38,082 nt of DNA from Candidatus Methanosuratincola sp. (GCA_029907755.1 JARYLH010000002.1:1-38082), one strand, 5' to 3'. Shown: positions 20,506 through 38,082, counted from the stretch's first letter. Translations and numbers: made by a program. The notes: generated by a model not told the origin, from the sequence alone.

Positions 20506-20712
20506 CCCAAAGTCTCCTTGAGAATAATAAGCCCGGCGCTCTATAAAAATTGAGCAGGGTCTCGGTGCGCTTATGGCTATGGCGCGGGCAAAACCGGTCT
20601 CCTTCCGGGCGTACAGAAAGGGTTTGCCCTCCGCACTTCTTCAAGTCTTGACTGGCTGCAGTATGCTGAAGAACCGAAATGGTATTATTGCTTCCTACCG
20701 AAATTATTGATC

Positions 20713-21348: not shown

Positions 21349-21417
21349 AGTTTTATCATCCAATTGTACACAAAAAGCATATATCGGAGCAAAAATAGGG
21401 TTTTTTGGGAGCAAGAT

Positions 21418-22386
21418 ATGGTGAATAAAATCCTTATTGTATCTTTGGTTGCCCTAGTTGTAATTATTGGCGGTCTCTACGCCTCCGGCATGATCTTCCC
21501 GCGCGAGGCCGAAACCATAAGGATCGGCCACCTGACAGGGGACCTCCATCACCTGGCGCTCTTCGTGGCAATCAATCAGGGGTACTTCGAGCAGTACGGG
21601 ATAAAGATACAGCTAAAGGAGTACGTTAACGGCCCATCTCTTATGCAGGACTTCTTGGCAGGTGAGCTGGACTTCGCTTACGTCGGCGCACCCCCAGCAA
21701 TATCTGCCAGGGCAAAAGCACTCTCTGATCCGAAATCACACCTGCCCGTAGTCATAGCTTCAGTCAACCTGGAAGGATCTGCAATAGTCGCAGAGGCTGG
21801 CATAGATACGCCTGACGACCTCGCCGGCAAAAACATTGGAACTCCTGGCACCGGCACAATACAGGACATAATGCTCAGCATGTTCCTCAGGGAGCGAAAC
21901 ATAACCATCACGAAGAGCCCGATGTCGATCTCCACGCTGCCCCTTGAATTCAGCAAGGGCGCAATCGACGGATTTATCGGCTGGGAGCCTGCCCCCTCGA
22001 TAGCTGTTGTCCAATCAGGGGCCCATGTGCTCCTCACATCCCATGAACTGTTCCCCAACCACCAGTGCTGCGTGCTGGTAGTCTCCAACAAGTACCTCGA
22101 GGCACACCCGGACATAGTCCAGAAGTTCGCGCAGGTGCACAAGATGGCAAACCAGTACATCCTTAACAACCCAGAATCGGCAAAGCAGATCGCGATGAAC
22201 GTAACCGGCTATTCCTCGGACATAATACAGCTGGCTCTTTCGCACATAGTCTACACCTCGACCCCTGACCCTGAGAGCATGAAGACATTCTTGCACTCGA
22301 TGATCGACCTGGGTGTCGTAACCACCGTATCGCACGATCAAGTCGACGGGTTCATAAACGCATTTATAGACACGCGTTTCATCTAA
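21418..22386 (+). CDS. ABC transporter substrate-binding protein, NitT/TauT (NMT1/THI5-like) family, N-terminal TM anchor
   Basis: ATG 21418 gives MVNKILIVSLVALVVIIGGLYASG, a signal anchor with no lipobox Cys. The fold matches type-2 periplasmic binding proteins of the sulfonate/nitrate/HMP type (IRIGHL...GELDFAYVGAPPAISA...GFIGWEP). Confidence 0.7.
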   Translation: MVNKILIVSLVALVVIIGGLYASGMIFPREAETIRIGHLTGDLHHLALFVAINQGYFEQYGIKIQLKEYVNGPSLMQDFLAGELDFAYVGAPPAISARAKALSDPKSHLPVVIASVNLEGSAIVAEAGIDTPDDLAGKNIGTPGTGTIQDIMLSMFLRERNITITKSPMSISTLPLEFSKGAIDGFIGWEPAPSIAVVQSGAHVLLTSHELFPNHQCCVLVVSNKYLEAHPDIVQKFAQVHKMANQYILNNPESAKQIAMNVTGYSSDIIQLALSHIVYTSTPDPESMKTFLHSMIDLGVVTTVSHDQVDGFINAFIDTRFI

Positions 22387-22401
22387 TGAAGAGTGATTTG
22401 G

Positions 22402-23184
22402 ATGGAGCGCCTCGATCGGGTAAAGGGCACACTGCTAGGGGCACTGTCCCTGGCAGTATTTTTTATCATCTGGCAACTGGTCGCTTGGTACCTTAATTCA
22501 CCGTTCCTTCCGGGGCCCTATGACGTGCTTCAGGCATTCGGAAGGATCTCCACGTCGGGGGACATCGACGGTTACACCCTGTATTCGCACTCGCTCATGA
22601 GCATCTACAGGGTAATGCTGGGCTTCGGCTTCGCAGGGATCACCGCAATCCCGCTGGGGGTCTTCATGGGGCTGAAGCCCTCCGTTAACAGTGTGTCCAC
22701 ACCGATAATAGAGCCTATAAGGTTCATACCCCCCATCGCATGGATCCCGCTTTCCATAATACTCCTCAGCGGCTTGGGGCGTTACATCTTCCTTATTTGG
22801 ATAGGCGCTTTCTTCCCTATACTCCTAAACACCATAGCTGGAGTGAAGCGCACATCGCCAGTCCTCGTGGACATGGCAAAGACGTTCGGTGCTGACAGCA
22901 GCACAATCACGTCTAGGATAGTCTTCCCCAGCGCACTCCCTGAGATTATGAGCGGACTGAGGGTAGGGCTCGGGGTGGGGTGGATGTGCATTGTGGCTGC
23001 CGAGATGATCGGCGGAGAGCCTGTTGGGTTGGGGCGTCTGATAATAAAGTACGCAAACCTCTACCAGATCGACGTTGTGATACTCGGCATGATAACCATC
23101 GGGATAATCGGTCTGGTGCTGAACTACGGCATCCTGACTGCAGAGAAGCGGCTCTTCAAGTGGAGGGTCGAGGTCAAGGCGTAG
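22402..23184 (+). CDS. ABC transporter permease, NitT/TauT family
   Basis: About 6 TM helices and an EAA-type loop (AKTFGADSSTITSRIVFPSALPEIMSGLRVGLGVGW). An alternative GTG lies at 22393. Confidence 0.8.
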   Translation: MERLDRVKGTLLGALSLAVFFIIWQLVAWYLNSPFLPGPYDVLQAFGRISTSGDIDGYTLYSHSLMSIYRVMLGFGFAGITAIPLGVFMGLKPSVNSVSTPIIEPIRFIPPIAWIPLSIILLSGLGRYIFLIWIGAFFPILLNTIAGVKRTSPVLVDMAKTFGADSSTITSRIVFPSALPEIMSGLRVGLGVGWMCIVAAEMIGGEPVGLGRLIIKYANLYQIDVVILGMITIGIIGLVLNYGILTAEKRLFKWRVEVKA

Positions 23185-23187
23185 GTG

Positions 23188-23952
23188 ATGGCTTTGGTAG
23201 CCGCTATTGAGCTCAACTCGGTCGGAAAATTCTTCGAGTCGGGAAAAGAAAAGATTGAGGTGATAAAGGACATCACCCTCAGCGTGGACGAGGGAAGGTT
23301 CGTCTGCGTCGTGGGCCCCTCGGGCTGCGGCAAGACCACGCTCCTGCGGTTGATGTGCGGGCTCCTCCAGCCGACGAGCGGCAAGGTGCTCGTCAATGGC
23401 AACCCGCCGGATCCTAAGAAGAACCGCTTCGGGGTCATATTCCAAGAGGACTCGCTGCTGCCTTGGAAAACCGTGCTCGAGAACGTCAAATTCGGCTTGG
23501 AAGTGACTAGGAGCAAGGGCAATGCCGATTCCACGGCGAGGGAGTTCATAGCCATGGTCGGCCTGAGGGGGTTCGAGGACTACTACCCGCACCAGATCTC
23601 GGGCGGCATGAAGAAGCGCGTCGCGATCGCCAGGGCTATGGCGGTGGATCCTGAGATAATACTCATGGACGAGCCATTTGCGGATCTCGATGCTCAGACC
23701 AGGCAGATACTCCAGAAGGAACTTCTGAGCGTCTGGTCGAAACTGAACAAGACAGTGATATTCATAACCCACAACGTCGACGAGGCAGTCTTCCTCGGGC
23801 AGGACATCGTCGTTTTGACCAAGCGCCCAGCGAGCGTGAAGGCACTGGTCAATGTGGATCTCGAGTACCCGAGGGCGAGGCTGAGCCCCCCCTTCATATC
23901 GTACCGGGAGAAGATCTTGCGTTATCTCCAGGAGGAGATCACCGCACTTTAG
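23188..23952 (+). CDS. ABC transporter ATP-binding protein, NitT/TauT family
   Basis: Walker A GPSGCGKTT, signature ISGGMKKR, Walker B ILMDEPF, H-loop ITHN. It starts 1-4 nt after the permease stop. Confidence 0.9.
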   Translation: MALVAAIELNSVGKFFESGKEKIEVIKDITLSVDEGRFVCVVGPSGCGKTTLLRLMCGLLQPTSGKVLVNGNPPDPKKNRFGVIFQEDSLLPWKTVLENVKFGLEVTRSKGNADSTAREFIAMVGLRGFEDYYPHQISGGMKKRVAIARAMAVDPEIILMDEPFADLDAQTRQILQKELLSVWSKLNKTVIFITHNVDEAVFLGQDIVVLTKRPASVKALVNVDLEYPRARLSPPFISYREKILRYLQEEITAL

Positions 23953-23962
23953 GGTGTCCTGC

Positions 23963-24517
23963 ATGGAAATGGACGGGTACGATCTCTACGAGGCACTGAT
24001 CTCCGCAGCAATGGAGTCAAATGAGAAGTTTGCAGAGATGCTGAAGTCGGTCATGAAAAAGAAAGGCATCACCGTCAGGGATCTGAGCGCTGGCTCGGGA
24101 GTCCCTGTAAGCACAATCAACAAGATGCTCTCGGAGGAGAGGGATATCCGGCTGTCGACCTTCAGGGAAGTGATCAGGTACATAGCGTCGCAGAGCATGG
24201 AGGTTGTGGGAGACATCACCGTCGGGATAATCGCAGCCCGCCCAGCCCTCAACGCTCTTTCAAGGCACCAGCTCCCAGTGAAGGGGAAAAAAGTGATCAT
24301 TAAGGAATACCCTGCCAACAATCTTGAGGAAGCCATAATCTGCGCCATAAGGGCTGAGCGCAATAGGGTGCAGGGGCTGGTATGTGCCTCCATCGTTGCC
24401 ACTACTGTGGAGAAGTTCGTGAGGATTCCCATCGTCACCATCAAGGTCGAGGAATCGAACATAATCGAATCGCTGAAAGTACTTGTCGACAAGATACTTT
24501 CAACCGAGCTTGTGTAA
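23963..24517 (+). CDS. XRE-type HTH protein with uncharacterised C-terminal domain
   Basis: GITVRDLSAGSGVPVSTINKMLSEERDIRLSTFREV is HTH_3-like. It starts 1-10 nt after the ABC ATPase stop and ends 132 nt upstream of mcrB. Confidence 0.6.
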   Translation: MEMDGYDLYEALISAAMESNEKFAEMLKSVMKKKGITVRDLSAGSGVPVSTINKMLSEERDIRLSTFREVIRYIASQSMEVVGDITVGIIAARPALNALSRHQLPVKGKKVIIKEYPANNLEEAIICAIRAERNRVQGLVCASIVATTVEKFVRIPIVTIKVEESNIIESLKVLVDKILSTELV

Positions 24518-24523: not shown

Positions 24524-24590
24524 TGATGCAAATATAACCTGTTGTTATTGCAGGGTTCTTAAGTGCAGATTATTACTGTGTTTAGGCAAG

Positions 24591-24620
24591 GCTTTAATAT
24601 TCCATACATCTTTAAAATAC
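24591..24620 (+). promoter_or_regulatory. Putative mcr operon promoter (two TATA-like boxes)
   Basis: TTTAATATT (24593-24601) and TTTAAAATA (24611-24619) lie in a markedly AT-rich 130-nt spacer, 30-57 nt upstream of the mcrB ATG. Confidence 0.45.
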
Positions 24621-24649
24621 ACGCAACAAAACTGAAAGAGAGGAGTTCT

Positions 24650-25984
24650 ATGGCGAAATATCCGGATAAAGTAGATCTATACGACGATCGTGGCCGCGTT
24701 TTCGCCTCCAAGGTTCCCGTTGAAGCTCTGAGCCCACTGCGCAACCCAGCAATGCAGAAGATAATTTCCTATGTGAAGCAGTGCGTTTCGGTGAATCTTG
24801 AGGGCATCGAGAAGGCCCTGGCGACCGGAGAAGTTGGTGGCAAATGGTGCATAATCAGGGGCAGATCCTTAAAGCTGGACCTTGTCAAGAATGCTGAGAG
24901 CATCGCCGACAGCCTCAAGAGTTGCCTGCAGGTGACGAAGGACGATGATACCGAGGTTAAGGTCCTCAAGGGAGGGAAGCACCTCCTTGTGAAGGTTCCA
25001 GCAAAGAGGCTGAATGCAGGAGTCGAATACACCACAGGGTTCACAGCTACTGCCGCTGCGCTCTGCTGCACAATTGTCGAAAACTTCAAGGTCAACCTAT
25101 GGGACGCTGACTTGATCCATGCAGCTGTCTGGGGCAGGTACCCGCAGACGATGGAACCGCTCGGCGGAAACGTGTCGTCACTATTGTCGGTTCCGCAACA
25201 GAATGAGGGTATGGGATACGCTCTGAGGAACGTTCCGTGCGCGCACATTGCCCTTATCACTAAGAAGAACGCAATGAACGCAGCAGCCCTCTCCTCGATA
25301 TTGGAACAGGCAGCCATGTTCGAGATGGGCGACGCGATCGGCAACTTCGAAAGGCTACACTTGCTAGGGCTAGCCTACCAGGGTCTGAACGCCAACAACC
25401 TTGTCTACGACATCGTGAAGGAGAACTCTAAGACCGGCACCCTCGGCGATGTGGCGATATCCACAGTCAAGAGGGCTATCGCAGACGGTGTCATCAAGCC
25501 GCTCGAGAAGAAGCCTTCTGGCTACACCGCTTACACGACTGAAGACCTCAACAAGTGGAATGCATACGCTGCAGCGGGTCTGCTGGCTGGCACAATGGTC
25601 ACCTGCGGCTCGGCTAGGTCGATGCAGCACTGCCCGTCCGTGTTCATATACTTCAACGACCTGATCGAGAGAGAAACCGGCCTGCCGGGAGTCGACTTCG
25701 GTAGGGTCGCGGGCACAGGAGTTGAGATGGCATTCTTCAGCCACTCGATCTACGGCGGAGGCAACCCCGCTGTGTTCCACGGCAACCACATCGTGACGAG
25801 GCACAGTAAGGGCTACGCGATACCCTGCGTGGCTGCAGCAGTCGCGCTCGATGCGGGCACAGTCATCTACACGCCCGAGAAGATCAGCGGCGTAGTCGGG
25901 GAGACTCTGAGCGAGGTGCCCGAGCTGAGGGAGCCGCTGAGGTATGTGAATGAGGCAGCAGTTTCAATCCATGGAGGTATCTAA
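24650..25984 (+). CDS. mcrB: Methyl-coenzyme M reductase beta subunit
   Basis: [39 protein letters not shown] is a classical McrB N-terminus. 444 aa. GAGAGGAG SD at 24638-24645. The track extension back to 24563 runs through the AT-rich promoter. Confidence 0.92.
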
Positions 25985-25985
25985 A

Positions 25986-26762
25986 ATGGTAGCGTACAAG
26001 CCACAGTATTACCCGGGAAACTCCAAGATCGCTAAGAACAGGAAGAAGTACCTGGACCCGTCCTACAAGCTTAAGAAGCTGAGGACGATCAGCGACGACG
26101 ACCTGGTGAAGCTGATGGGCCACAGGGTTCCGGGAGAGGCATACAAGTCGGTCCACCCGCCGCTTGAGGAGATGGGCGAGCCGGCATGCCCGATCAGGGA
26201 ACTCGTTGAGCCGACGCCAGGCGCGAAGGCAGGCGACAGGATCAGGTACATCCAGTTCACCGACTCGGTTTACTTCACACCGCTGACCCCATACATGAGG
26301 GCATGGATGGGACACACGAGGTACAGGGGAGTCGACATCGGCGTCCTCTCGGGGAGGGTCCCGCTCGAAGCAAGGGAACGTGACCTGGAGAAGGTCGCGA
26401 AGGAACTCGTCGAGACCGAGATATTCGATCCTGCAAGGTGCGGGATCAGGGGCGCAACCGTCCACGGGCACTCTCTGAGGCTAGACGAGAACGGAATGAT
26501 GTTCGACGCGCTCAGGAGATTCGTCTTCGACAAGAAGACTGGCGAGGTCGTCTACGTGAAGGACCAGATCGGAGTGCCTCTCGACAAGCCTATCTCTGTC
26601 GGAAAGCCGATCAAGGAGGAAGAGCTAAGGGAAATGACTAGCGAGTACAGGGTCGACGGCGTCCCGTTCAGGGAGGACAAGGAAATGGTTGAGTTCGTAC
26701 AGCGCCTGCACATGCTAAGGACGGAGGCTGGATTCGATCCAAATAAGGTGAAGGGGATCTAA
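25986..26762 (+). CDS. mcrG: Methyl-coenzyme M reductase gamma subunit
   Basis: [18 protein letters not shown]...[35 protein letters not shown]...[15 protein letters not shown] matches McrG. 258 aa. GGAGGT at 25973-25978, and the ATG is 1 nt after the mcrB stop. Confidence 0.92.
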
Positions 26763-26775
26763 GGAGGAGATATGA

Positions 26776-28446
26776 ATGGCAACTGAAAAGAAGATGTTCT
26801 TGGAAGCACTCAGGAAGAAGTTCAAGGAGTCTCCAGAAGAGAAGTACACCAAGTTCTACATATACGAAGGATGGAAGCAATCTAAGAGGAAGAAAGAATT
26901 CGTCGAGTGGGGCACCAAGCTGGCGAAGGAGAGGGGCATCCCATTCTACAACCCCGAGATGCACCTAGGCGGCATCCCGCTGGGTCAGAGGGTGCTGATG
27001 CCATACAGGCTATCGCAGACCGACATCTACTGCGAGGGCGACGACCTTCACTTCATCAACAACGCCGCGATGCAGCAGATGTGGCACGACATCAGGAGGA
27101 CTGTTATAGTCGGTCTCGATGCTGCCCACATGGTCCTGCAGAAGCGGCTAGGTAAGGAGGTCACCCCTGAGACGGTGAACCACTACCTCGAGGTGCTGAA
27201 CCACGCGCTGCCAGGTGCTGCTGTTATCCAGGAGCACATGGTCGAGACCCACCCAGGGCTCGTCTCAGACTCGTACGTCAAGGTATTCACCGGAGACGAC
27301 GAACTGGCGGACGAGATCGACAAGCGCTTCCTCATCGACATAAACAAGGAGTTCCCTGCTGACCAGGCTGCACAGCTGAAGGCTGCCGTAGGCAAGCGGA
27401 TCTACCAGGTCCTGCGCATGCCCACAATAGTTGCAATGACCTGCGACGGAGGAACGATGTCGAGATGGTCTGCAATGCAGATCTCGATGTCGATGGTCAA
27501 CGCCTACAAGCTGATGGCTGGTGAAGCAGCAATCGGCGAGTTCGCCTTTGCAGCGAAGCACGCCGAGGTAATCGAGATGGGTACCCTTATGCCATGGAGG
27601 CGCGCGAGGGGTCCGAACGAGCCAGGCGGTGTACCACTCGGATACCTTGTAGACATCTGCCAGGCTTCGAGGGTCAAGCCCGAGGATCCGACATGGGTCG
27701 CGCTTGAAGCCATCTCGATGGGGGCGGTGCTCTACGACCAGTTCTGGTTCGGCAGCTACATGTCTGGAGGCGTAGGCTTCACGCAGTACGCCACGTGCAC
27801 ATACACTGACAACGTCCTTGATGACTTCTGCTACTACGGCGCGGACTATGTCAAGAAGAAGTACGGCGGATTCGGGAAGGCGAAGCCAAGCTGGGACCTT
27901 ATAAAGGACATCGCGACCGAGGTCACACTCTACGGGCTCGAGCAGTACGAGCGCTTCCCAGCGCTGATGGAGACCCACTTCGGCGGTTCGCAGAGGGCTG
28001 CTGTTGTGGCCGCAGGCGCAGGCGTAGCCGTATCGCTCGCTACAGGCAACTCCACGGCAGGCATCAACGGCTGGTACCTGAGCCAGCTTCTCCACAAGGA
28101 GGAGATGGGCAGGCTCGGCTTCTACGGCTACGACCAGCAGGACCAGTGCGGTTCGGCAAACAGCTTCTCGTACAGGAGCGACGAGGGCCTTCCATTCAAC
28201 CTGAGGGGTGTGAACTACCCGAACTACGCCCTGAACGTAGGGCACCAGTCGGCGCACACGGGGATTGTCCAGGCAGCGCACAGCGGAAGGGGCGATGCGT
28301 GGACGACCAACCCGCTGATAAAGATCGCATTCGCCGACAAGGACCTGAAGTTCGACTTCACGCACCCGAGGCTCTGCTTCGGCAAGGGCGCTCTGAGGGA
28401 GTTCATGCCTGCGGGCGAGAGGTCCCTCATCATACCGAGCCGATAA
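26776..28446 (+). CDS. mcrA: Methyl-coenzyme M reductase alpha subunit
   Basis: 556 aa and collinear with canonical McrA as I remember it. Motifs: [81 protein letters not shown] and NVGHQ. AGGAGG SD overlaps the mcrG stop. Confidence 0.95.
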
Positions 28447-28495: not shown

Positions 28496-29083
28496 ATGCC
28501 CTCGTCAATAGGAACCCTTTCATTCTCTGAACTGGCGAGCAAGATCAAGGCACTTTCTGTGGCATCTCCGGAGGAGGCTGAAGCGCAGTTCCCTGGATCC
28601 CCCAATTTTGCAAAGTACATAGCACAGCTATTCCTTGAAGACCGGCTTTTTGACATTCTGCCGAGGCTGGAAACTCAGCTCCAGATCGTGCGGCGGTTCT
28701 TCCCTCCAGTAAGGCCCGCTCTCGATCCCTACACATCCACCCAAATAGGGATCTTTTCCAAGCGATTCGATGACTACGAGATAGGTCGTTTTCTTGGTTA
28801 TCCTGAGTGCTGCATGCGGTCCTTCGCAGAGAATGTCAGGTACGGCATAGACGAGGGGCACGTCCAGGAACTAAAGGGATCCGGCATGAAAGCTTTTGCG
28901 ACGACCGCCGGCTTCATACCTTGCAGCATATTCTGTAGGGAAGCCCAGAACAGGGGGCTCCTGTCGTTCATTGAGCCCAATGAGATCGGGAATTTACGTG
29001 CTCTGGAAAAGGAAACCGCGATGCGGCTCCCACACTTCCACCCCGAGTACCGGGAGCATTACTTCGAGGTCAGGCTGCTCTGA
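28496..29083 (+). CDS. Uncharacterised Cys-motif protein (GYPECC ... CSIFC), possible metal-binding MCR-associated factor
   Basis: 195-aa ORF whose ATG is 49 nt after the mcrA stop. Cys105/Cys106 lie in FLGYPECCMRSF and Cys143/Cys147 in IPCSIFC. It vaguely recalls an archaeal DUF family with a GYPxCC motif (unverified). Confidence 0.5.
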   Translation: MPSSIGTLSFSELASKIKALSVASPEEAEAQFPGSPNFAKYIAQLFLEDRLFDILPRLETQLQIVRRFFPPVRPALDPYTSTQIGIFSKRFDDYEIGRFLGYPECCMRSFAENVRYGIDEGHVQELKGSGMKAFATTAGFIPCSIFCREAQNRGLLSFIEPNEIGNLRALEKETAMRLPHFHPEYREHYFEVRLL

Positions 29084-29847
29084 TCCACCGGTTTGATCTC
29101 GGAGGCTATCCTCGCGACCTCGTTCAGGGAATCCACGAAGTAATCGACCTCCGAGCACAGGCTCTCCTTCTGGAACTCGCCCCTCCGCCTGACGAGTACC
29201 GCGATGTCCGCCTCGCGCATCGCGATCAGGTCGTTTATATCGTTGCCTACCATCACAACAGATCCGTAGAAACCGCGGAGTCTCCTCACGAGCTCCCTCT
29301 TCTCCTCCGGGGATGCATCGAAGATCGCTGCGTGCCTCGATATGTTCAGGAGATCTGCGCACTTCATAGTCATCTCCTTGCAGTTCCCGGTGGCAAGGTA
29401 AACATCGACGCCACTCTCCTGCATGGACCTGACGGACTCCTTGACCTCGGGGTAGAGTTTCCCTCCGAGCCCCACAACGTCCGTTATATCGCCCGCCTGG
29501 CTGAAGACAACTGCAACGCATGCCCCAAGTTCGGAGGAGCAGTGGGTCAGGGCCTTCTGGTATGTCTCGCGTATCCCTTCCAAAACCACAGGATCAAGCA
29601 GCTTTGACTTGTCCATGGGGGGGTATCTTTTCAAAGCACAGCAGCTCACTTTGAACCTGGCCTTGGCGACGTTCCCTTTCATTATGTCTTGGATCTTGCC
29701 CTTCAGATTTACGAGAACTCCTCCCTTCTCGACCACGTACTTCAGCGTACTTATGTGGTAGAGCCACTTCCTCTCCTCGATGTTGTACACTACCCTGCAC
29801 GGATCTATTATGGTGCCTGACTTGTCCAGAACGACCGCTTTTCTCAA
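29059..29847 (-). CDS. Soluble P-type-ATPase-like HAD-superfamily phosphatase
   Basis: N-terminal LDKSGT (compare the DKTGT phosphorylation motif) and C-terminal MVGNDINDLIAMREADIAV (compare the GDGxNDxPAL hinge). No TM segments; 262 aa. TTG is the only possible start, with GGTGA SD, 9 nt after the upstream stop. Confidence 0.6.
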   Translation of the reverse strand: MRKAVVLDKSGTIIDPCRVVYNIEERKWLYHISTLKYVVEKGGVLVNLKGKIQDIMKGNVAKARFKVSCCALKRYPPMDKSKLLDPVVLEGIRETYQKALTHCSSELGACVAVVFSQAGDITDVVGLGGKLYPEVKESVRSMQESGVDVYLATGNCKEMTMKCADLLNISRHAAIFDASPEEKRELVRRLRGFYGSVVMVGNDINDLIAMREADIAVLVRRRGEFQKESLCSEVDYFVDSLNEVARIASEIKPVDQSSLTSK

Positions 29848-29856
29848 CTGCGGGTA

Positions 29857-30150
29857 TCACCCTGCGCCGCTGCAGCTTCCGCTGGTGTCTATCGTCATGT
29901 CCCCGCCCTTCAGCTGTTCCTCGCTGATCTTCACTTCCTCTTCCTTCACCTTTTCCTTTCCAGCCACCGGTCTTTGTTCCTCTGAAACCAACTCCTGCTC
30001 AACCGGCTCCAGAACGTTTTCGTCATATAGAAGGCCTGTCGCGTCCAATTCCGCCCAAGTCTTGCCGTCCATCTCAACGATTTTGGTGATGTGCCCCTTC
30101 GTCCCCGTCTTCTCGTAGACTACGGCTTCCCCTTCCTTGAACCTCAACAC
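29857..30150 (-). CDS. Small conserved archaeal protein (SH3/Tudor-like N-terminus, charged Lys/Glu tail)
   Basis: 97-aa ORF with a GTG start. FKEGEAVVYEKTGTKGHITKIVEMDGKTWAELDATGLLYDENVLEP resembles small methanogen DUF proteins (unverified). Confidence 0.45.
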   Translation of the reverse strand: MLRFKEGEAVVYEKTGTKGHITKIVEMDGKTWAELDATGLLYDENVLEPVEQELVSEEQRPVAGKEKVKEEEVKISEEQLKGGDMTIDTSGSCSGAG

Positions 30151-30215: not shown

Positions 30216-31145
30216 TTGGAGAGCCTCTCGAACATCATCGATGTCGCGAAGAATTTCAAGGGACTGAAGAGAAAGATCGAGATAGGCGAGATCACAGCGA
30301 TTCTGGGGGAGCACGAATACGACGACGCTGGCTTCATAGATCTCGGGGATGTTAGCATCGTCGTGTCAACGGACGGGATAACCGAAGATTTGGTGAAGTC
30401 CGATCCGTGGTTTGCCGGGTACTACTCCGTACTTGTCAACGTTAATGACGTGGTCGTGAAGGGGGCCAGGCCTATGGGCTATGTGAACGTGATGTCCGGG
30501 AGCAAGGAAAGCAGGCGGAAGATGGCCCAGGGCATAAAGGCAGGACTGGACAAGTACGGTCTAAAGCTCTTGAAGGGACACACGCACCCGGACTCCTCTT
30601 ATGAGGCGATCGACGCAGCTGTCGTCGGCATTGCAAGGCGCGTGGCAAAGGGGAATGCTGCCCGCCCAGGGGACAACATCGTGATGGCGATCGACCTAGA
30701 GGGCTCCTTCGGAGTCAAGGGGTGGGTGAAGTGCTTCGACAGCACGCTCAAAAAGGGCAGCAAGGAGCTCGGGATGATGATTGAGTCAATAATCACAGCC
30801 GTCGAGTCAGGCCTGGTAAAGGCATCGAGGGACATCAGCGCCCCCGGCATTCTCGGCAGCCTTGCCATGCTGTGCGAAGCCAGCGCGGTCGGGGCTGAAG
30901 TCGATGCCGGGAAGATACCCAGGCCCGAAGGGACCACGATATCAGAGTGGTTCGTATCCTATCCTGCGATGGGATTCATATTTGCATCCGATGACGATTC
31001 GCTGGTTTCGAAACTCTGCGACGCCGGTTTCCACGCGAGCGTTGTGGGGAAATTCAATGCCACAAAAAAGATATGCGTAAGGCTCGGCAGCGACCGCAAA
31101 ATTTTCATGGATCTCTCAAGGGAGTCGGTTTTTGGAATTCATTAG
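30216..31145 (+). CDS. PurM/ThiL/HypE-superfamily ATP-binding protein, methanogenesis marker protein 2-like
   Basis: PurM-like N domain (DDAGFIDLGDVSIVVSTDGI ... NVNDVVVKGARPMG) and C domain (SRDISAPGILGSLAMLCEASAVGAEVD). 309 aa with a TTG start and GAGGGA SD. It neighbours atwA. Confidence 0.6.
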   Translation: MESLSNIIDVAKNFKGLKRKIEIGEITAILGEHEYDDAGFIDLGDVSIVVSTDGITEDLVKSDPWFAGYYSVLVNVNDVVVKGARPMGYVNVMSGSKESRRKMAQGIKAGLDKYGLKLLKGHTHPDSSYEAIDAAVVGIARRVAKGNAARPGDNIVMAIDLEGSFGVKGWVKCFDSTLKKGSKELGMMIESIITAVESGLVKASRDISAPGILGSLAMLCEASAVGAEVDAGKIPRPEGTTISEWFVSYPAMGFIFASDDDSLVSKLCDAGFHASVVGKFNATKKICVRLGSDRKIFMDLSRESVFGIH

Positions 31146-32741
31146 CTCGTTTTTCTCCTCCGGCGTCAGCTCTTTTGCAACGTCTGATGGCTTGCCCCTG
31201 CTGACTATTTTCCCGTTTCTCATCAGTATCGTGTCTTCGCACGTGTTTTCAACAAACCCCATGTCATGAGATATTATTACGAACGTCTGACCAAGCTCGT
31301 TCCTAGCATTCTTTATCGACTTTGCCACATCCTGCTGGGTTATTGGATCCATAGTGCCTGAGGGCTCATCCAAGAGCACTATAATCGGCTCCTTTATCAG
31401 CACCTGCGCAAGGGCGACCCTATGACTCTCCCCTTCGCTCAGCTCGTCCGGATACTTGGAGAGCGTTCTCTCAATCGTGGATTCATCGAAGCCCGCAGCT
31501 GTGAGCACGCTCTGTGCCTTGAACTTGGCGAATTCGTCAGGGAGCTCAAGACCTATGGCATCGGTGAGGTTCTCCTGAACCGTCCTGTGGGGATAGAGCG
31601 CGTACTCTTGGTGCAGGAGCCCGATGAATGGCGTGGCCCTGCCCCTGCCCATCGGTCCAGGCTCCAGCATGTTGACCCACTCCTCACCGATCTTGAGCTC
31701 GATTATGCCCGATGTGGGCTGCGTCACGCCGACTATCGCCCTGGAGAGCGTGGTCTTGCCTGCGCCGCTCAGCCCAATTATCCCGAAGATCTGCCTTTCC
31801 CTGACCTCGAAGGTGACCCCGTCCAGCGCCTTGACAACCCCCTTGTCTATCGAGAAGTAGTACTTCTTCAGATCCTTCACCCTCAGGATGACGTCCCCGA
31901 GCTCTGGCGGCTTCGGTATCTCCTCGGGGGCGAGCCTTGAAAGGAACTTGGCAGTGACCTCCTTGGGGTTTCCAGCCGCACTGATCTTACCCCCTTCGAG
32001 CAGCACCGCCTTTTCGCAGAGCTCCTCTATGGCTTCAGGGAGGTGCGAAGTGATCAGAAGCGTGCTTTTGCCCGGCCCCGTTTCCCTCTTTATGATCTTG
32101 TGGATCATCCCCGCATTCAGGGGGTCTAGGGTCCCAGTGGGCTCGTCAGCCAGCAGGAGCAGCGGCTTTATCGCCAGCTGCCTGCCGAGGACTACCCTCT
32201 GCTTCTCACCGCCGCTCAGGTCCCTTGCTGCATGAAGTAGCCTGTTTGCCAGGCCAATGTCCTTGGCAATTTCAAGCGCCTTCTTGCTGGCATCCTCGGA
32301 GGATACTTTGTTGAGCGCTTCTACGAGATTCTCATAGACCGTAAGGCTGCCATAAAGCGCGAAGGTCCTCTGAAACATTATGGCTATCCGCTGCCTGAGC
32401 CATTTGGTCTTCGGATCCTCGCCGTAAATGTCTACCTCCGCCTTCTCCATCTCTTTTTGGCAGTGCGGGCAGCAGTTGGGGCACTTCTTTCTTGCCCAGC
32501 TCGGTCCTTCAACCGTCTGGCAGTGTTCGCATACGGCCACGTGGAAAACTATCTGTCCCGACTCTGGCTTGTACTCCCTTATCCCCTTCAGCATCGAGAG
32601 CAGCACCGTCTTCCCGGAACCGCTCTTGCCTATGATGCCTACCCTCTCTCCCTCTTCTATAGTTAGCGTTACACCGTCCAGGACTTTGTTGCCGTTGAAC
32701 GACTTTGAAACATTCCTGATCTCTATGAAAGGAACGCCCAT
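31116..32741 (-). CDS. atwA: Methyl-coenzyme M reductase system component A2 (tandem ABC ATPase)
   Basis: It has two nucleotide-binding domains (NBDs). Their motifs are GKSGSGKT/LSGGEKQR/LLLADEP and GLSGAGKTT/LSEGESHR/VLLDEP. A Cys-rich insert (CEHC...CPNCCPHC) follows the first Walker A. 541 aa. Confidence 0.85.
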   Translation of the reverse strand: MGVPFIEIRNVSKSFNGNKVLDGVTLTIEEGERVGIIGKSGSGKTVLLSMLKGIREYKPESGQIVFHVAVCEHCQTVEGPSWARKKCPNCCPHCQKEMEKAEVDIYGEDPKTKWLRQRIAIMFQRTFALYGSLTVYENLVEALNKVSSEDASKKALEIAKDIGLANRLLHAARDLSGGEKQRVVLGRQLAIKPLLLLADEPTGTLDPLNAGMIHKIIKRETGPGKSTLLITSHLPEAIEELCEKAVLLEGGKISAAGNPKEVTAKFLSRLAPEEIPKPPELGDVILRVKDLKKYYFSIDKGVVKALDGVTFEVRERQIFGIIGLSGAGKTTLSRAIVGVTQPTSGIIELKIGEEWVNMLEPGPMGRGRATPFIGLLHQEYALYPHRTVQENLTDAIGLELPDEFAKFKAQSVLTAAGFDESTIERTLSKYPDELSEGESHRVALAQVLIKEPIIVLLDEPSGTMDPITQQDVAKSIKNARNELGQTFVIISHDMGFVENTCEDTILMRNGKIVSRGKPSDVAKELTPEEKNELMNSKNRLP

Positions 32742-32879
32742 TGTGCCTTACACCCTAAAGACAACCTATTTTGAAAACCGATGTATTTAACTTTGTAGTT
32801 ATGACGCAGTAATGCTTCAAGGACCGATTTTTTCTTTTAGCTGACCTTACGAGTTGGTCGTTGCACTCAAACTCTCGAA

Positions 32880-33530
32880 TCAAAGGCATTTGCAATCCCT
32901 GATCCTTTCGAGGACTTTAATCGCATCCTCCCTCTTCAGGTCCACTCGAGTTTTTTTCATCAGTTCGAGTATCTCCCCTGCCCTCGTGCTGCTGAGACCT
33001 CCACGAACTGCCCTCTGGAGTATTCTAGTGTAGTTCCTCAGCTGGAAGGGGACTTCCTTCGCAGCAACTAGGATGGAGTCGTGCTCTTGTTGGGTTATCA
33101 TCCCCGAAGCCAGAGCCCTCTCAAGCGTTGCCCTGACGTTCACGAGGGGCTCTGAGAGCGGTCTGAGGCTTTCGGGATGGAATGCAAGGGCGACCTCGTC
33201 GTCAGATCTTATCTTGCCTGACTTGTACCATTCATAAATCGTGCCGATGCCAACCATGCCGTAGACATCCAGCTCGGATGCCCTCAGCGCGCCCATGCTA
33301 GAGCCGCCGAAGACCTTTGACCCCCCCTCAATCGCTCTGAGTATTTCCCGGTGAGAGACTGCTGCCTGCTGGTAAAAAACCCCGTCGATCAGGGCTATAA
33401 CCTTCGCCCCCGATTCAGCGACCCTGATGATGTCCCCCCTGGCCGCCGGCGGCAGGTATTCCGCGTCGCTCAGCAACTTCCGGGCAATATCCCATTCCAG
33501 GCTAGGCCCGAGGAATACAACTGCCCTCAT
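32880..33530 (-). CDS. tfuA: TfuA-like protein (partner of YcaO in McrA thioglycine formation)
   Basis: MRAVVFLGPSL...YLPPAARGDI...ALIDGVFYQQAAVSHREIL...GGSSMGALRASEL are TfuA hallmarks. ATG 33530 has a GGAGGGG SD; the track start is GTG 33539. Confidence 0.85.
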   Translation of the reverse strand: MRAVVFLGPSLEWDIARKLLSDAEYLPPAARGDIIRVAESGAKVIALIDGVFYQQAAVSHREILRAIEGGSKVFGGSSMGALRASELDVYGMVGIGTIYEWYKSGKIRSDDEVALAFHPESLRPLSEPLVNVRATLERALASGMITQQEHDSILVAAKEVPFQLRNYTRILQRAVRGGLSSTRAGEILELMKKTRVDLKREDAIKVLERIRDCKCL

Positions 33531-33566
33531 CTTATGCACCGCCGCCCCTCCTGAGCTTTCCCTGCT

Positions 33567-34769
33567 TTAATGCCCCTTGTCCGAATAAGTGGACAGCCTT
33601 CTCCCGGCTCTCTCCTTGTCTAGCGCATAGACCTCAAGCCCGGGGACTATCACGCGGACTGCAGGTACCCCTATCTCCCCTCGAGTGAGGTCGACTACTA
33701 TCACCTCTCGGAGTCCAGCCCTCCCCAGCCCCTCGATGGTGTACCTTATGTCCTCGAGAAAATCCTTTCCAGAAAATGACCTCAACTCGTCAAGGCTGAC
33801 CCTCTCTGGGCATGGGGCGAACCACTTCCTGTTTATCCTCTTCATCCTTTCGTAACCTATCCTCCTGGCGAATTCAGCCTTCACAGTGTCCTCCCTGGTC
33901 CCATGGATGGTAGTCAGCCTGCTCTGAACGGCCTCGGTCAAAGCCCTGACAGCTGCTATCTCAGCCATGAGATGCGTTCCCACGCCGAGCGAGAGGAGCG
34001 CAGGATCCTTCGTCAGCTCGTCGTCAATGGCCACTGCTACTGTTGGAATCCCCACATCCGAGGTGATTTCCTTTGCATATACCCCAATACCTGCCTTCTC
34101 GAGCTTTTCCAGTACCGCCCTGACCATCGGACTGCCGCAACCCGACAGATCGAGGTCCCTTCCCTGCAGCCTCCCTGCCTCGAAGAGGGACCATGCATCC
34201 CTCTCGATCACCTCCATGAGCCCGTGCACAATCGCCTCCTCGAGCGCATTCCCTACAGCGAGACCATTGGTGTTGGTTCGGAAGAGCTGGTTGTGCCTGC
34301 TGTACGGATGGAAAACAGCCTCTGCCGGGACGAGAATTGTCGCGTCCCGCGTCAGCGAGTGCCCTTCGACCCATTCTATCTCCTCGGAAGACTGGTACCT
34401 GCGGGGCAATATCAGCAGATTCGGATCCAACACCTCCCTGTCCCTGCTGATTTCCTTGTATGATCCCCTCACAAGCCTAAGACCCCTGGGCTCCGCAGAG
34501 AACCTCTCGATGCCCTCCATTATTGCCGATACTTCTGCCTCCTCTTGGGAGTAGCCCTTTCCTGTGTAGACCGTGACCGCCCCCTGCGATGCCATCGGTC
34601 TTATTGATGTGAAGATGGGTATGCCGATGCGGTCTAGCCCTGTTATTTCCGCAACCCTGGTGATTCCTGCCTTTTCCTTGACCCTGCTGACCAGCTCCAG
34701 CGTCTTAGCCGGGGGGATCTCCCTATGCATCCCCGCTGTGTATCCCTTGGGGACCGATCTCAGGTTCAT
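33567..34769 (-). CDS. ycaO: YcaO-type ATP-dependent thioamidation enzyme (methanogenesis marker 1)
   Basis: 400 aa with a YcaO-like core (GITRVAEITGLDRIGIPIFTSIRP ... GKGYSQEEAEVSAIMEGIERFS ... NTNGLAVGN). It sits directly upstream of tfuA. Confidence 0.85.
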   Translation of the reverse strand: MNLRSVPKGYTAGMHREIPPAKTLELVSRVKEKAGITRVAEITGLDRIGIPIFTSIRPMASQGAVTVYTGKGYSQEEAEVSAIMEGIERFSAEPRGLRLVRGSYKEISRDREVLDPNLLILPRRYQSSEEIEWVEGHSLTRDATILVPAEAVFHPYSRHNQLFRTNTNGLAVGNALEEAIVHGLMEVIERDAWSLFEAGRLQGRDLDLSGCGSPMVRAVLEKLEKAGIGVYAKEITSDVGIPTVAVAIDDELTKDPALLSLGVGTHLMAEIAAVRALTEAVQSRLTTIHGTREDTVKAEFARRIGYERMKRINRKWFAPCPERVSLDELRSFSGKDFLEDIRYTIEGLGRAGLREVIVVDLTRGEIGVPAVRVIVPGLEVYALDKERAGRRLSTYSDKGH

Positions 34770-34794
34770 GTGCGGCGCATCCCTTCATGCGAAC

Positions 34795-36036
34795 TTATTT
34801 TCTGGTCTCCTCTAGCTCCTTCATCCCGGATACCATCACAGCTGCGCCGACGCACCCGATCAGGTTGGGCTTTTGGGGGACTATCATCTCTACGCTGAGT
34901 ATCTCCGAGAGTGCCTTGACCAGCCCCTTGACAAGCGCAGTCGATCCGACTTGGATTATCGGGTACCTTATGTCTATCTCCTGGAGCTGCTGCTCGAAGA
35001 CCTGCTCGGCTACGCTGTGGCAGGCGGCTGCGGCCGCATCCTCTGGCTTTGCCCCGCCTGCGAGCCCAGCAACGAGATCCTGCAGCCCGAAGACGATGCA
35101 GTAAGCATTCATGGGCACCGCCTTCCAGTCCCCTTTCATCGCGAGATCCCCGAACTGCTCTATCGGGACGCCGAGCCTCTTGGCAGTGGTTTCAAGGAAC
35201 CTGCCGGAGGCGCCCGCACAGACGCCGCCGACAGTGAAGCTGTCGGGTATGCTGTCGTAGAGCGTTACTGCTTTGTTGTCCATGCCGCCGATGTCTATTA
35301 CGGTGGCGTCACCCCTCTGCTTGTCGGTCAGGAACAGCGCCCCCTTTGAGCAAGTAGAGACTTCCTCCATTGCCAGCTGTGCCTTGTACTTCTCCTTCAG
35401 GATCGTCCTGCCGTAGCCTGTCACCCCGATCCCCTCAAGCTTGGACTCGTCAATGCCAGCCTCCTTGAGCGCCTGGTTCAGCGCCGTCATGCCCGAGTCC
35501 AGCACACTGGTGGTGGGTACCCAACCGTGGCCTATGATCTCATTATCCTTCATAACAACTGCCTTCGTTGTTGTTGAGCCCGAGTCTATCCCAGCGGTTA
35601 TGCCTTCCTGCTTCATCCTTGCGAAGAGTGGCTTCTTGTCTATGATATTCACCAGCGCTTCCATGCGCAGCAGGAGCGCCCCTGCTTTCGTCCTCTCTGT
35701 GAATGAATAGGTCACTACTGGGATCTTAGTCTGGCTCTGGATGTACCTCCTGACGACACTCCTCACGAGTGCGCCCTCAGCGCACCTGAAGCAGGTCGCA
35801 ATGAACACCCCATCCGCATCGACCCTGCCTTCCACTATGGCTTTCGCCCTAGCCATCATCACCCTAAGTCCCGGGCTAGCCACATGGAAGCCGAGCTCGT
35901 CCTCAATCGTCCTGATCTCCGATACATCGACCTCAGGCACGAATATCTGCCCGCCTACGATCTTTGCCGCCTTCTCGATCTCAGCCTGAATCCCGCTGTA
36001 CTCAGAGCCGCATGATATTTGCGCTATCCTGACCAT
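34795..36036 (-). CDS. Methanogenesis marker protein 15-like, BadF/BadG/BcrA/BcrD-type ATPase
   Basis: N-terminal [37 protein letters not shown] module, then an ASKHA/BcrAD fold ([14 protein letters not shown] ... DIGGMDNKA ... [10 protein letters not shown]). 413 aa. Confidence 0.7.
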
Positions 36037-36132
36037 CTGCCCTCACCAGCCTCTGCGAACATCCTTTGATATTCCGTCTTCCTCGCTCAAAATAATCCTT
36101 TCTGCTGTGGCGGGCTGGAGCAACCGAATCAA

Positions 36133-37284
36133 TTACTTTATCCTTATCTCCACTATGTCCCCGTCCGCAAGCTCATGGTCTGCCCCAACCTTCTCGGCAT
36201 CATACTTTGCCGAGGGTCCCCAGATCCTCGCTATCTTGAAGTTCTTGTAGAGGTGCGAGTGGACCACCTTCGCCACATCGATGACCTTCGAGCCCTGCCT
36301 CATCACTATTGGTTTCTTGGCGGGTTCTCCCCCGACCTCCTTGGTATAGACCCTGATTATCCCTAGCATCCTGAAGATCTCCCTGCCAAGGACATCAAGC
36401 CCCGCGCCTGTCCGCGCTGAGACCCCAAGCGCCTCCCTCCCAGTCAGCCTTTTGAACTCCTGCAGCGCCCTTGGGTACATGTCAACTTTGTTTATAAGGA
36501 TCAGCGATGGCTTGTAGGTCTTTGTCTGCTCCAGTGCCCCCAGGATGTCCTCCTTCCCCGCGTCCCCCCATATCCTGACGATCGCGTTCCTGACCCCTGC
36601 CTCCTTCAAGATCTTGTCGATCTCCTCCACTCTGCAGGAGATCCTGCCGGTGCATGCTATCTGGATCCCGCCGCCCGTGGTCCTCTCGATCTCGATCCTC
36701 CTCGCAGCCCTGTCGGTCGTTATACCCGCCATTCCAAGCTCTTTAGTCACCATGCCGTACTGGCCAACCGGATCGGATCCGTCCAGCACGATAGCCAGCC
36801 CGTCCGCATTCCTTATAACGCTCATTAGCTGCGATCCCCAAGAGAGCCCATAGCTTGCCCCTTCAAAAATCGCCGGGGTGTCCACCAGCTGGAACTGCAG
36901 GTCTTCGAAGTCAAGCATCCCTGGTACTGGCTCTTTGGTGGTGAACTGGTAGTCGTCAACCTCAACCTTCGCATTAGTCGTGGATGAGAGTATGCTGCTC
37001 TTGCCGGAGCCGGTAGCCCCGACCAGCACAACCTGGGCGGCCCCTTCCTTCTTGACCGAGAAACCGCCGCCCCCGCTGCCTGATTTCCTCTTCTTCTGCT
37101 CCTCGAGCTCCTCCTTAAGTTCAGCAAGGCGCCTCCTCAGGTACCTCCTCATCTTTTCATTGCCTTTGTGTTCTGGGATCGATGAGATGAATTCTTGGAG
37201 GTATCTTATCTTCTCGGGCAGCGTCTTGGCCTCGATGTATCTCCTCTCTGCGGCCCTTGCCTGGGGAGGTAGGTTTGCGGGCAA
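36133..37284 (-). CDS. OBG/DRG-family GTP-binding protein with C-terminal TGS domain
   Basis: G1 GATGSGKSS, G3 VDTPAI, G4 NKVD, and a C-terminal TGS-like beta-grasp ending in GDIVEIRIK. TTG start (MPANLPPQ). Confidence 0.75.
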   Translation of the reverse strand: MPANLPPQARAAERRYIEAKTLPEKIRYLQEFISSIPEHKGNEKMRRYLRRRLAELKEELEEQKKRKSGSGGGGFSVKKEGAAQVVLVGATGSGKSSILSSTTNAKVEVDDYQFTTKEPVPGMLDFEDLQFQLVDTPAIFEGASYGLSWGSQLMSVIRNADGLAIVLDGSDPVGQYGMVTKELGMAGITTDRAARRIEIERTTGGGIQIACTGRISCRVEEIDKILKEAGVRNAIVRIWGDAGKEDILGALEQTKTYKPSLILINKVDMYPRALQEFKRLTGREALGVSARTGAGLDVLGREIFRMLGIIRVYTKEVGGEPAKKPIVMRQGSKVIDVAKVVHSHLYKNFKIARIWGPSAKYDAEKVGADHELADGDIVEIRIK

Positions 37285-37343
37285 GTACTACACCGTTTCC
37301 CAAGACTCTTCCTTTCCCTCTCGGGATATAATAAATGTATACC

Positions 37344-38069
37344 TCACTTATGCGCCTTCCTAGCGGATACCATTCTAGCTACCCTGACGATCCTGTCCGC
37401 CAGCCTGAGCGCGTTTTTCTCGAAGAAATAGGCATTTGGCTCTATCCCGACCCCGCCCGTATCGATAATCACGTCGACCCAGCCCCTGTTTTCCTTGAAT
37501 GCACCTTCTGCGAATTCGAAAAGCTCCTCCTCGCCCTTCTGCACCGGCGTCCGATCGAATACAGCACAGTTGAACCCCATCTTGTTTATAACCTCTGCAA
37601 CGTCCTCGTTGTAAGCAGTGTTCATAACCGACCTCACCTCGGGTTTCACGCTCATCACTCTCAAGAGTAGATTCGCCAAGTGGCTCGAGACGCCGAACTC
37701 CGGGTCCATCAGGGACATCACCTTGCCCCTTATTTTGACCAGCCTTCCTGGGATCCCCGCCACATCGGCGACACCCTTCGCATTCTTCAGCGCCATGACC
37801 ATGTTGGACAGCACCTGCGGCTCCAATTCAACGAACTCAGGGGTGTTCTCGATCATCGAGACTGCAACAGTCAGGTCGCTAAGGGTCGCCCTCCTCATGT
37901 CTGAGAGGTCTGTAAGGCTCATATGTAGCTGCATGCATATGCTGCACTTCTCGTCCTCAAGCTCTTGGATCCTCCTCTTATGGGCATGGCATATCGAACC
38001 TCCACGCCTCAGGTTGAGGCAGATCTCGCAGATGTTATTGATCATGTCCGCGTTCGAGAACCGCTTCAT
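37344..38069 (-). CDS. ThiN-type thiamine-phosphate synthase domain protein with N-terminal Cys/His-rich module
   Basis: C-terminal 180 aa: VAGIPGRLVKIRGKV...PEFGVSSHLANLLL...VRSVMNTAYNEDV...CAVFDRTP...VDVIIDTGGVGIEP matches my memory of the ThiN (COG1992) pattern. The N-terminus carries CEIC...CHAH...CSIC. Confidence 0.55.
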   Translation of the reverse strand: MKRFSNADMINNICEICLNLRRGGSICHAHKRRIQELEDEKCSICMQLHMSLTDLSDMRRATLSDLTVAVSMIENTPEFVELEPQVLSNMVMALKNAKGVADVAGIPGRLVKIRGKVMSLMDPEFGVSSHLANLLLRVMSVKPEVRSVMNTAYNEDVAEVINKMGFNCAVFDRTPVQKGEEELFEFAEGAFKENRGWVDVIIDTGGVGIEPNAYFFEKNALRLADRIVRVARMVSARKAHK

Positions 38070-38082
38070 TGTGATCTCGGAT

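Follow-up and report, generated by a model that had tools for sequence, protein, structure and literature searches.

In methanogens, YcaO and TfuA convert a glycine of McrA, the alpha subunit of methyl-coenzyme M reductase (MCR), to thioglycine, as reflected in the NCBIfam equivalog definitions and in established knowledge. Activation of MCR involves further proteins: component A2 binds McrG and hydrolyses ATP, and McrC, Mmp7, Mmp17 and Mmp3, with a DUF2098 protein, pass low-potential electrons via three complex Fe-S clusters to F430 (PMC12176620; bioRxiv 10.64898/2026.03.18.712670). The DUF2098 protein, of 10.6 kDa, co-purifies with McrC, Mmp7, Mmp17, Mmp3 and A2, and is held by a loop of McrC (PMC12176620). 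A2 itself is separated from related tandem ABC ATPases by a zinc-binding motif, CXXCX12CXXC, and its homologues without this motif are a known separate class (bioRxiv 10.64898/2026.03.18.712670). Here we consider a stretch of 38,082 nucleotides from Candidatus Methanosuratincola sp. (GCA_029907755.1, JARYLH010000002.1:1-38082; referred to below as the window), in which genes for thioglycine formation and for activation stand close to the structural genes of MCR.

A first-pass annotation of the window left two possibilities for the genes at 30216-36036: (i) that the missing partners of the activation machinery are encoded elsewhere in the genome; or (ii) that the organism activates MCR with a reduced or different set. 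The first is what we find, because mcrC, an mcrD-like gene, mmp5, mmp3, mmp6, mmp17 and mmp7 lie on the same contig, 11.9-16.8 kb past the right end of the window. We put the probability at about 90% that what is seen here is half of a canonical set of MCR accessory genes, divided in two and typical of Methanomethylicia, and not a reduced or alternative one. It is a lineage-specific splitting and reshuffling of a known gene set in published, annotated genomes, and its apparent incompleteness is an effect of the window's edge. Gene identities, motifs, positions and synteny are shown here, and the functions of YcaO-TfuA, A2, McrC, Mmp7, Mmp17, Mmp3 and DUF2098 are taken from the literature on model methanogens.

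MCR accessory genes within and beyond the window

The gene map of the window is based on the listing of its open reading frames (ORFs), 37 of which were scanned with NCBIfam, and on NCBIfam and Pfam matches. The three subunit genes of MCR are on the plus strand, and each exceeds its NCBIfam cut-off: mcrB (beta subunit; 24563-25984; TIGR03257, 651 bits against 516), mcrG (gamma subunit; 25950-26762; TIGR03259, 393 bits against 172), for which the public gene call has a start at ~25986 (258 aa), and mcrA (26776-28446; TIGR03256, 1008 bits against 768), whose product shares 98% identity with the McrA proteins of Ca. Methanosuratincola LCB70 and LWZ-6. The operon consists of mcrBGA only (24563-28446), with neither mcrD nor mcrC between the subunit genes. 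Four accessory genes follow on the minus strand, and all are above their cut-offs: component A2 (AtwA; 31116-32741; TIGR03269, 722.5 bits against 517.1), the TfuA-related McrA-glycine thioamidation protein (32880-33539; NF033432, 267.7 bits against 235.2; Pfam TfuA, E = 1e-44), YcaO or methanogenesis marker 1 (33567-34769; TIGR03266, 468.7 bits against 365) and methanogenesis marker 15 (Mmp15; 34795-36036; TIGR03286, 652 bits against 455.75). In the ORF listing, 25 nt separate mmp15 from ycaO and 27 nt separate ycaO from tfuA; the latter two are adjacent on the same strand, and both pass equivalog cut-offs. Mmp15 has a BcrAD/BadFG-type ATPase domain at residues 146-401 (PF01869 match at 149-401, E = 4e-64) and shares 99% identity with its counterparts in LCB70 and LWZ-6.

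The A2 protein aligns over residues 6-534 to positions 1-528 of the 530 in TIGR03269, and it matches chain K of the cryo-EM activation complex (8S7V/9H1L) end to end with 576 bits. Read in translation, it has the motif C71-E-H-C74-x12-C87-P-N-C90 and two Walker A motifs. The fifth accessory gene, at 30216-31145 on the plus strand, encodes a PurM-fold protein; the 3′ ends of this gene and of the convergent A2 gene share 30 nt. The label of marker-2-like given to it in the first-pass annotation holds insofar as TIGR03267 is its best family and aligns end to end (the runner-up, sll0787 AIR-synthase-like, scores 203 bits); the score of 241 bits is below the curated cut-off of 365. Orthologues also stay below this cut-off, at 245 bits in Methanomethylicus and 302 bits in Archaeoglobi, where the gene is next to mcrB. 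Its Pfam domains are AIRS and AIRS_C, and its nearest solved relatives are SelD, ThiL, PurM and HypE. The positions reported earlier for these five genes were exact; the statement that they lie within 6 kb of mcrA was not, as the distance from the mcrA stop codon to the end of mmp15 is 7.6 kb.

The window itself does lack the remaining partners, as had been noticed: none of its 37 ORFs has an NCBIfam match to McrC or to markers 3, 5, 6, 7 or 17, nor does any match McrD. When the same genome's copies of McrC, McrD, Mmp3, Mmp5, Mmp6, Mmp7 and Mmp17 were compared with the whole window by six-frame tblastn, the best E was 0.022.

Exact look-up of the window's YcaO gave two public copies, one on JGI contig Ga0417229_000119 (118,117 bp; 99.94% identical) and the other on contig JBNVBW010000003.1 of NCBI GCA_050411035.1. 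The latter contig was traversed via exact protein matches, giving loci L073, L074 and L075, of which L074 is 100% identical to the last 4.9 kb of the window (33190-38082). McrC, McrD, Mmp5 and Mmp7 from Nezhaarchaeota and Archaeoglobi loci served as queries. A protein search with Mmp7 of Nezhaarchaeota, and then with that of Methanomethylicia, retrieved marker 7 proteins from many Methanomethylicia, several of them on the same contigs as mcr loci.

On JBNVBW010000003.1, the NCBIfam scores are 499.5 bits for Mmp3 (cut-off 234), 135 for Mmp6 (126), 127 for Mmp17 (67), 392 for Mmp7 (349), 283 for McrC (213.5) and 208 for Mmp5 (140), together with 51.6 for a McrD-like protein of 108 aa (cut-off 100). 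In window-equivalent coordinates the distal set occupies 49,984-54,904, which is ~14 kb from mmp15. The genes mmp3-mmp6-mmp17-mmp7 are on one strand, and the mcrD-like gene, mcrC and mmp5 are divergently transcribed. The DNA between the two halves encodes ThiDN, NAD synthase, triose-phosphate isomerase, a PALP enzyme and regulators. We also note that mcrC and the McrD-like gene (L075 8940-9931), placed ~15 kb away, adjoin mmp5 and a 167-aa protein with an ArsR/MarR-type helix-turn-helix (HTH) domain.

The second cluster is present as well on the L012 contig and in the Methanosuratincola metagenome-assembled genome bin.90. In both, one strand carries the 167-168-aa HTH protein, mmp5, mcrC and the mcrD-like gene, and the divergent strand carries mmp3, mmp6, mmp17, mmp7, a 558-aa tandem ABC ATPase and a RACo-type activase; mcrD excepted, the cluster genes are above NCBIfam cut-offs. 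The bipartite layout recurs in L076 (99.4% to LWZ-6), L072 (95.7% to LCB70), L044 and L039.

Two of the distal proteins can be compared directly with the solved complex. Mmp7 matches chain H of 8S7V at E = 3e-82 (279 bits), and McrC matches chain I at E = 1e-68 (234 bits). Residues H84, C90 and C143 of Mmp7 and C12 of McrC are reported ligands of the [8Fe-9S-C]-type clusters (PMC12176620), and the equivalents of all four are conserved relative to 8s7v chains H and I.

The genes at 28.5-30.2 kb had been put forward as possible substitute activators, and two of the three are canonical. The small protein encoded at 29857-30150 on the minus strand matches DUF2098 (PF09871, E = 2.6e-17) with 63.3 bits, above the Pfam gathering threshold of 25, and its matches in the PDB, weak ones at E = 0.19, are solely to the DUF2098 chains 8s7v_L, 8s7x_L and 9h1l. 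By its family match, this ORF is a member of the family of the sixth, McrC-bound subunit of the activation complex. What the first-pass annotation gave as background on the canonical cluster and on the make-up of the complex was accurate, apart from this subunit, which it omitted (PMC12176620). Next to it, at 29059-29847 on the minus strand, is a gene for a soluble HAD-IC-type hydrolase (Pfam Hydrolase, E = 8e-15). Full-length homologues of this protein (E = 1e-15 to 1e-18) are encoded ~100 nt upstream of A2 in the classical clusters of L062, L063 and L066 and share its NCBIfam profile; it is thus a recurrent neighbour of A2.

Taken together, these results bear on the proposal of a reduced or alternative machinery, in which McrC, Mmp3, Mmp7 and Mmp17 would be lacking and MCR would be activated by A2, Mmp15, the PurM-like protein and the genes at 28.5-30.2 kb. 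The failure to find McrC and Mmp3/5/6/7/17 within the 38-kb window is what speaks for it. Against it, all of these are encoded on the same contig 12-17 kb past the edge, above curated cut-offs, and McrC, Mmp7, Mmp17, Mmp3, A2 and DUF2098 are then all accounted for, with Fe-S ligands conserved; the same partners are found in four other Methanomethylicia assemblies; and of the proposed substitutes, DUF2098 is a subunit of the published complex and the HAD-type hydrolase adjoins A2 in classical clusters. A marker cluster with mcrC is thus present in the genome and the layout is common across the class, the two findings that the first-pass annotation itself had named as decisive against a reduced set. 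We therefore consider a reduced machinery extremely improbable. There is also a general caution in this, namely that genes absent from a 38-kb window are not absent from the genome, and here the activation genes begin just past its edge.

If the components act in Methanosuratincola as they do in model methanogens, the division of labour in the two-part canonical set would be as follows. YcaO-TfuA would take McrA as substrate and convert its glycine to thioglycine. A2 would bind McrG and drive a conformational step of the Ni(II) to Ni(I) activation, with McrA as the subunit on which the activation complex acts. McrC, Mmp7, Mmp17 and Mmp3, encoded in the distal half with Mmp5, Mmp6 and the McrD-like protein, would form the electron-transfer core. 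Mmp15, as a BcrAD/BadFG-type ATPase, may act in ATP-coupled electron delivery or in cluster maturation, and the Mmp2-like PurM-fold enzyme would be expected to activate a substrate with ATP.

Several observations weigh against the two-part canonical set as we describe it. The McrD-like protein is short and sub-cut-off (51.6 against 100), and the Mmp2-like protein fails the curated marker 2 cut-off (241 against 365). Synteny extends over unrelated housekeeping genes (por, gamma-carbonic anhydrase, GTPase and ThiN), and the fact that genes stay neighbours says little, taken alone, about a functional link between them. How the genes are organised into operons in this organism, and what their proteins do, are predictions made from sequence. 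Finally, the window is 99.85-99.96% identical to the public contigs over 14.5 kb, not byte-identical over its full length, and on its left side it extends ~10.6 kb past the end of both of them (L048, L049, L073 and L074 compared). The window therefore comes from a third assembly, and "same genome" is to be read here at the level of the population and not of the assembly.

Conservation of the layout in Methanomethylicia

Over 20 kb, the window is collinear with Ca. Methanosuratincola petrocarbonis LWZ-6 (CP130488.1) at ~89% nucleotide identity, and likewise with the enrichment strain Ca. M. verstraetei LCB70 (CP186953.1) at 85-89%. Identities at this level assign the window to a third Methanosuratincola species, in the class Methanomethylicia ("Verstraetearchaeota", Thermoproteota). 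LWZ-6 is a cultured isolate and an H2-dependent methyl-reducing methanogen (PMC12244365). Cultured methanogens of the Thermoproteota carry the complete euryarchaeal-type machinery for MCR activation and thioglycine formation, including DUF2098, and the complete set found here agrees with published work, which regards these genes as conserved wherever genomes encode MCR or alkyl-coenzyme M reductase.

With McrA as guide, a scan over GTDB species, each represented by one genome, yielded 38 loci, and synteny was assessed by tblastn of the window proteins against all loci. The order that is kept runs from porG through gamma-carbonic anhydrase, DUF2124, a regulator, an ABC transporter, an HTH protein, mcrBGA, DUF483, HAD and DUF2098 to the right half, with the Mmp2-like gene, A2, tfuA, ycaO, mmp15, GTPase and ThiN. 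A few loci miss single flanking genes, and shorter contigs agree as far as they extend. Exactly the same order from mcrA to mmp15 is shared by 17 Methanomethylicia loci, among them those of the isolate LWZ-6 and of LCB70; these 17 cover Methanosuratincola, Methanomethylicus and further family-level lineages, with McrA identity down to 79-84% and identities of 45-70% for the other proteins.

In two Methanomethylicus-like genomes, unrelated insertions of 3.3-3.7 kb are found between DUF2098 and the Mmp2-like gene (L007 13561-16889 and L012 13509-16455). One contains ABC-ATPase fragments and a 488-aa protein, and the other a carboxyltransferase; the island therefore tolerates interruption. The insertions were also considered as a source of further MCR genes, and were rejected as such on these contents.

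One reading of the conserved order is that the island is a selected, co-regulated unit of YcaO-TfuA, A2, DUF2098, Mmp15 and the structural genes, in which DUF483, HAD and the Mmp2-like protein are unrecognised maturation factors. The persistence of the order in 17 loci across the class, while protein identity falls to 45-70%, argues in this direction, as do the tight gaps between mmp15, ycaO and tfuA. So does the behaviour of these genes in other lineages: Nezhaarchaeota also have DUF483, DUF2098, mmp15 and A2 close to mcrBGA, in another order, the Mmp2-like gene adjoins mcrB in Archaeoglobi, and HAD adjoins A2 in classical clusters. On the other hand, the island comprises at least four transcription units on alternating strands, unrelated housekeeping genes are part of the conserved block as well, suggesting that gene order in the clade changes little in general, and unrelated insertions are tolerated in L007 and L012. 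Because of the alternating strands and the synteny over housekeeping genes, a single co-regulated island is only possible, and on balance we lean somewhat against this reading.

Candidate maturation genes and flanking genes

The third of the genes at 28.5-30.2 kb encodes a DUF483 protein (28496-29083, plus strand; PF04467, E = 5e-31) and begins 49 nt downstream of mcrA. It is next to mcrA in all Methanomethylicia loci, and in Nezhaarchaeota it lies between DUF2098 and mmp5. Across 32 orthologues, conservation reaches at least 95% at residues C105, C106, H122, C147, H180 and H182, and these near-invariant cysteines and histidines suggest a metal site. A sequence search of the PDB with DUF483 returned nothing meaningful and no solved relative, and a single-sequence AlphaFold2 model was unusable (pLDDT, the predicted local distance difference test, 40). 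Two classes of Thermoproteota show a linkage of DUF483 to mcr or mmp genes.

In the distal half, three genes follow mmp7 within L075 13424-17520 (window-equivalent ~45.9-50.0 kb): one for a 558-aa tandem ABC ATPase that has no A2 zinc motif, at a distance of 21 nt from mmp7; one for a RACo/AcsV-like ATP-dependent reductive activase of 632 aa, which overlaps the ABC gene by 11 nt; and one for a 181-aa protein. This arrangement, with the mmp genes ahead, is conserved in 10 Methanomethylicia loci, and an orthologue of the ABC paralogue (46-47% identity) adjoins mcrA in Nezhaarchaeota. The ABC-RACo pair may serve MCR activation or the activation of corrinoid methyltransferases.

These positions, directly behind mmp7, overlapping the gene of a RACo-type activase and, in Nezhaarchaeota, beside mcrA, could be taken to mean that the 558-aa protein is the true activation ATPase and that the A2 of the window has some other role. 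However, this protein scores 303 bits against TIGR03269 (cut-off 517), is without the zinc-binding motif and is 30% identical to the window A2, whereas the window A2 scores above the cut-off, carries the motif and aligns over its whole length with the A2 chain of the solved complex. The 558-aa protein also fits the known class of A2 homologues without a zinc-binding motif. On the profile score and the missing motif we reject it as the real A2, and regard an exchange of roles between the two proteins as very unlikely.

DUF483, the HAD hydrolase, the Mmp2-like protein and the A2 paralogue without a zinc motif show repeated linkage to mcr or mmp genes in several lineages, and they form a candidate list for MCR maturation. 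These neighbours, together with the RACo activase, which with the ABC paralogue would share an operon with mmp3-mmp6-mmp17-mmp7, occur exclusively or mostly in MCR lineages of Thermoproteota. That they are unrecognised parts of MCR maturation or activation seems to us unlikely. If it were true, the ABC/RACo pair could be a low-potential electron-input module of the activation complex, and DUF483 or the Mmp2-like protein could install a McrA modification whose enzyme is still unassigned.

Directly upstream of mcrB, on the plus strand, an HTH regulator (20707-21348) and a second HTH protein (23954-24517) flank a sulfonate/NMT1-type ABC transporter (21364-23952) made up of an SsuA-like binding protein (21364-22386), a permease (22393-23184) and an ATPase (23185-23952). 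This block, at 20707-24517, is kept in essentially all Methanomethylicia loci, and in the Archaeoglobi loci L023-L029 mcr is likewise preceded by a permease and ATPase of the same type. Coenzyme M, which is a sulfonate, or a related compound is a plausible import substrate of the transporter. A DUF2124 protein (20023-20505, minus strand; Pfam E = 3e-30), of a family described as conserved in archaea, lies between gamma-carbonic anhydrase and the regulator and transporter block, and is syntenic across the class. The left 20 kb of the window hold housekeeping genes (iorAB, gatCAB, CDC48, leuA, TBP, signal peptidase, porGDAB and gamma-carbonic anhydrase), together with a 991-aa ORF at 2834-5809 on the plus strand in which a PKD domain (residues 431-495) is the only feature, the NCBIfam scan giving no match; it is probably a surface protein. 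Beyond mmp15, on the minus strand, are an Obg-like GTPase (36133-37284) and a ThiN-domain gene that occupies 37344 onward and is cut by the window end (320 aa in the public gene call).

Comparison with known systems

With respect to the published MCR activation complex, all six non-MCR subunits are encoded here, A2 and DUF2098 in the window and McrC, Mmp7, Mmp17 and Mmp3 on the same contig, and the zinc motif and Fe-S ligand residues are conserved. The differences lie in arrangement: the genes are in two loci ~14 kb apart, and the mcr operon is mcrBGA, whereas in the published case it is mcrBDCGA, with mcrC and mcrD inside. In addition, the likeness of the DUF2098 protein to the PDB chain is weak (E = 0.19).

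The "MCR activation operon" of Methanosarcina acetivorans and classical methanogens (bioRxiv 10.64898/2026.03.18.712670) likewise comprises A2 and Mmp3, 5, 6, 7, 15 and 17, and the classical-type contigs L062, L063 and L066 share the HAD-type neighbour of A2. On these contigs the order is HAD-A2-mmp3-mmp6-mmp5-mmp15-mmp17-mmp7; the classical layout also has mcrD and mcrC inside the mcr operon. Here, by contrast, HAD, A2 and mmp15 are beside mcrBGA, together with ycaO-tfuA, the Mmp2-like gene, DUF483 and DUF2098; mmp3-6-17-7 remain together and are followed by the zinc-motif-free A2 paralogue and the RACo-type activase; and mmp5 is with mcrC and mcrD on the opposite strand. The thioglycine system agrees with the known YcaO-TfuA pair (TIGR03266/NF033432) in its scores above both equivalog cut-offs and in its spacing of 27 nt, and differs in that in Methanomethylicia it stands in line with mmp15 upstream and A2 downstream.

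Other lineages have found other arrangements. Bathyarchaeota-like contigs have mmp3-6-5-15-17-7-mcrD-mcrC, and in Archaeoglobi with a horizontally related MCR the Mmp2-like gene adjoins mcrB-D-C-G-A. The mcr supercluster of Nezhaarchaeota (L021 and L034) shares families with the Methanomethylicia set that are linked to mcrBGA, including DUF483, DUF2098 and the zinc-motif-free A2 paralogue. It differs in being a single cluster of ~17 kb with another order (mcrC, mmp3-6-17, mcrBGA, zinc-motif-free ABC, mcrD, a glutamine C-methyltransferase, DUF2098, DUF483, mmp5, mmp15, mmp7 and A2), of which the glutamine C-methyltransferase is an addition, and neither ycaO-tfuA nor the Mmp2-like gene is within the examined flank of L021 or L034. 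Judged by gene order, the Methanomethylicia layout looks like a Nezhaarchaeota supercluster that has been split, with mmp15 detached from the other mmp genes and joined to ycaO-tfuA.

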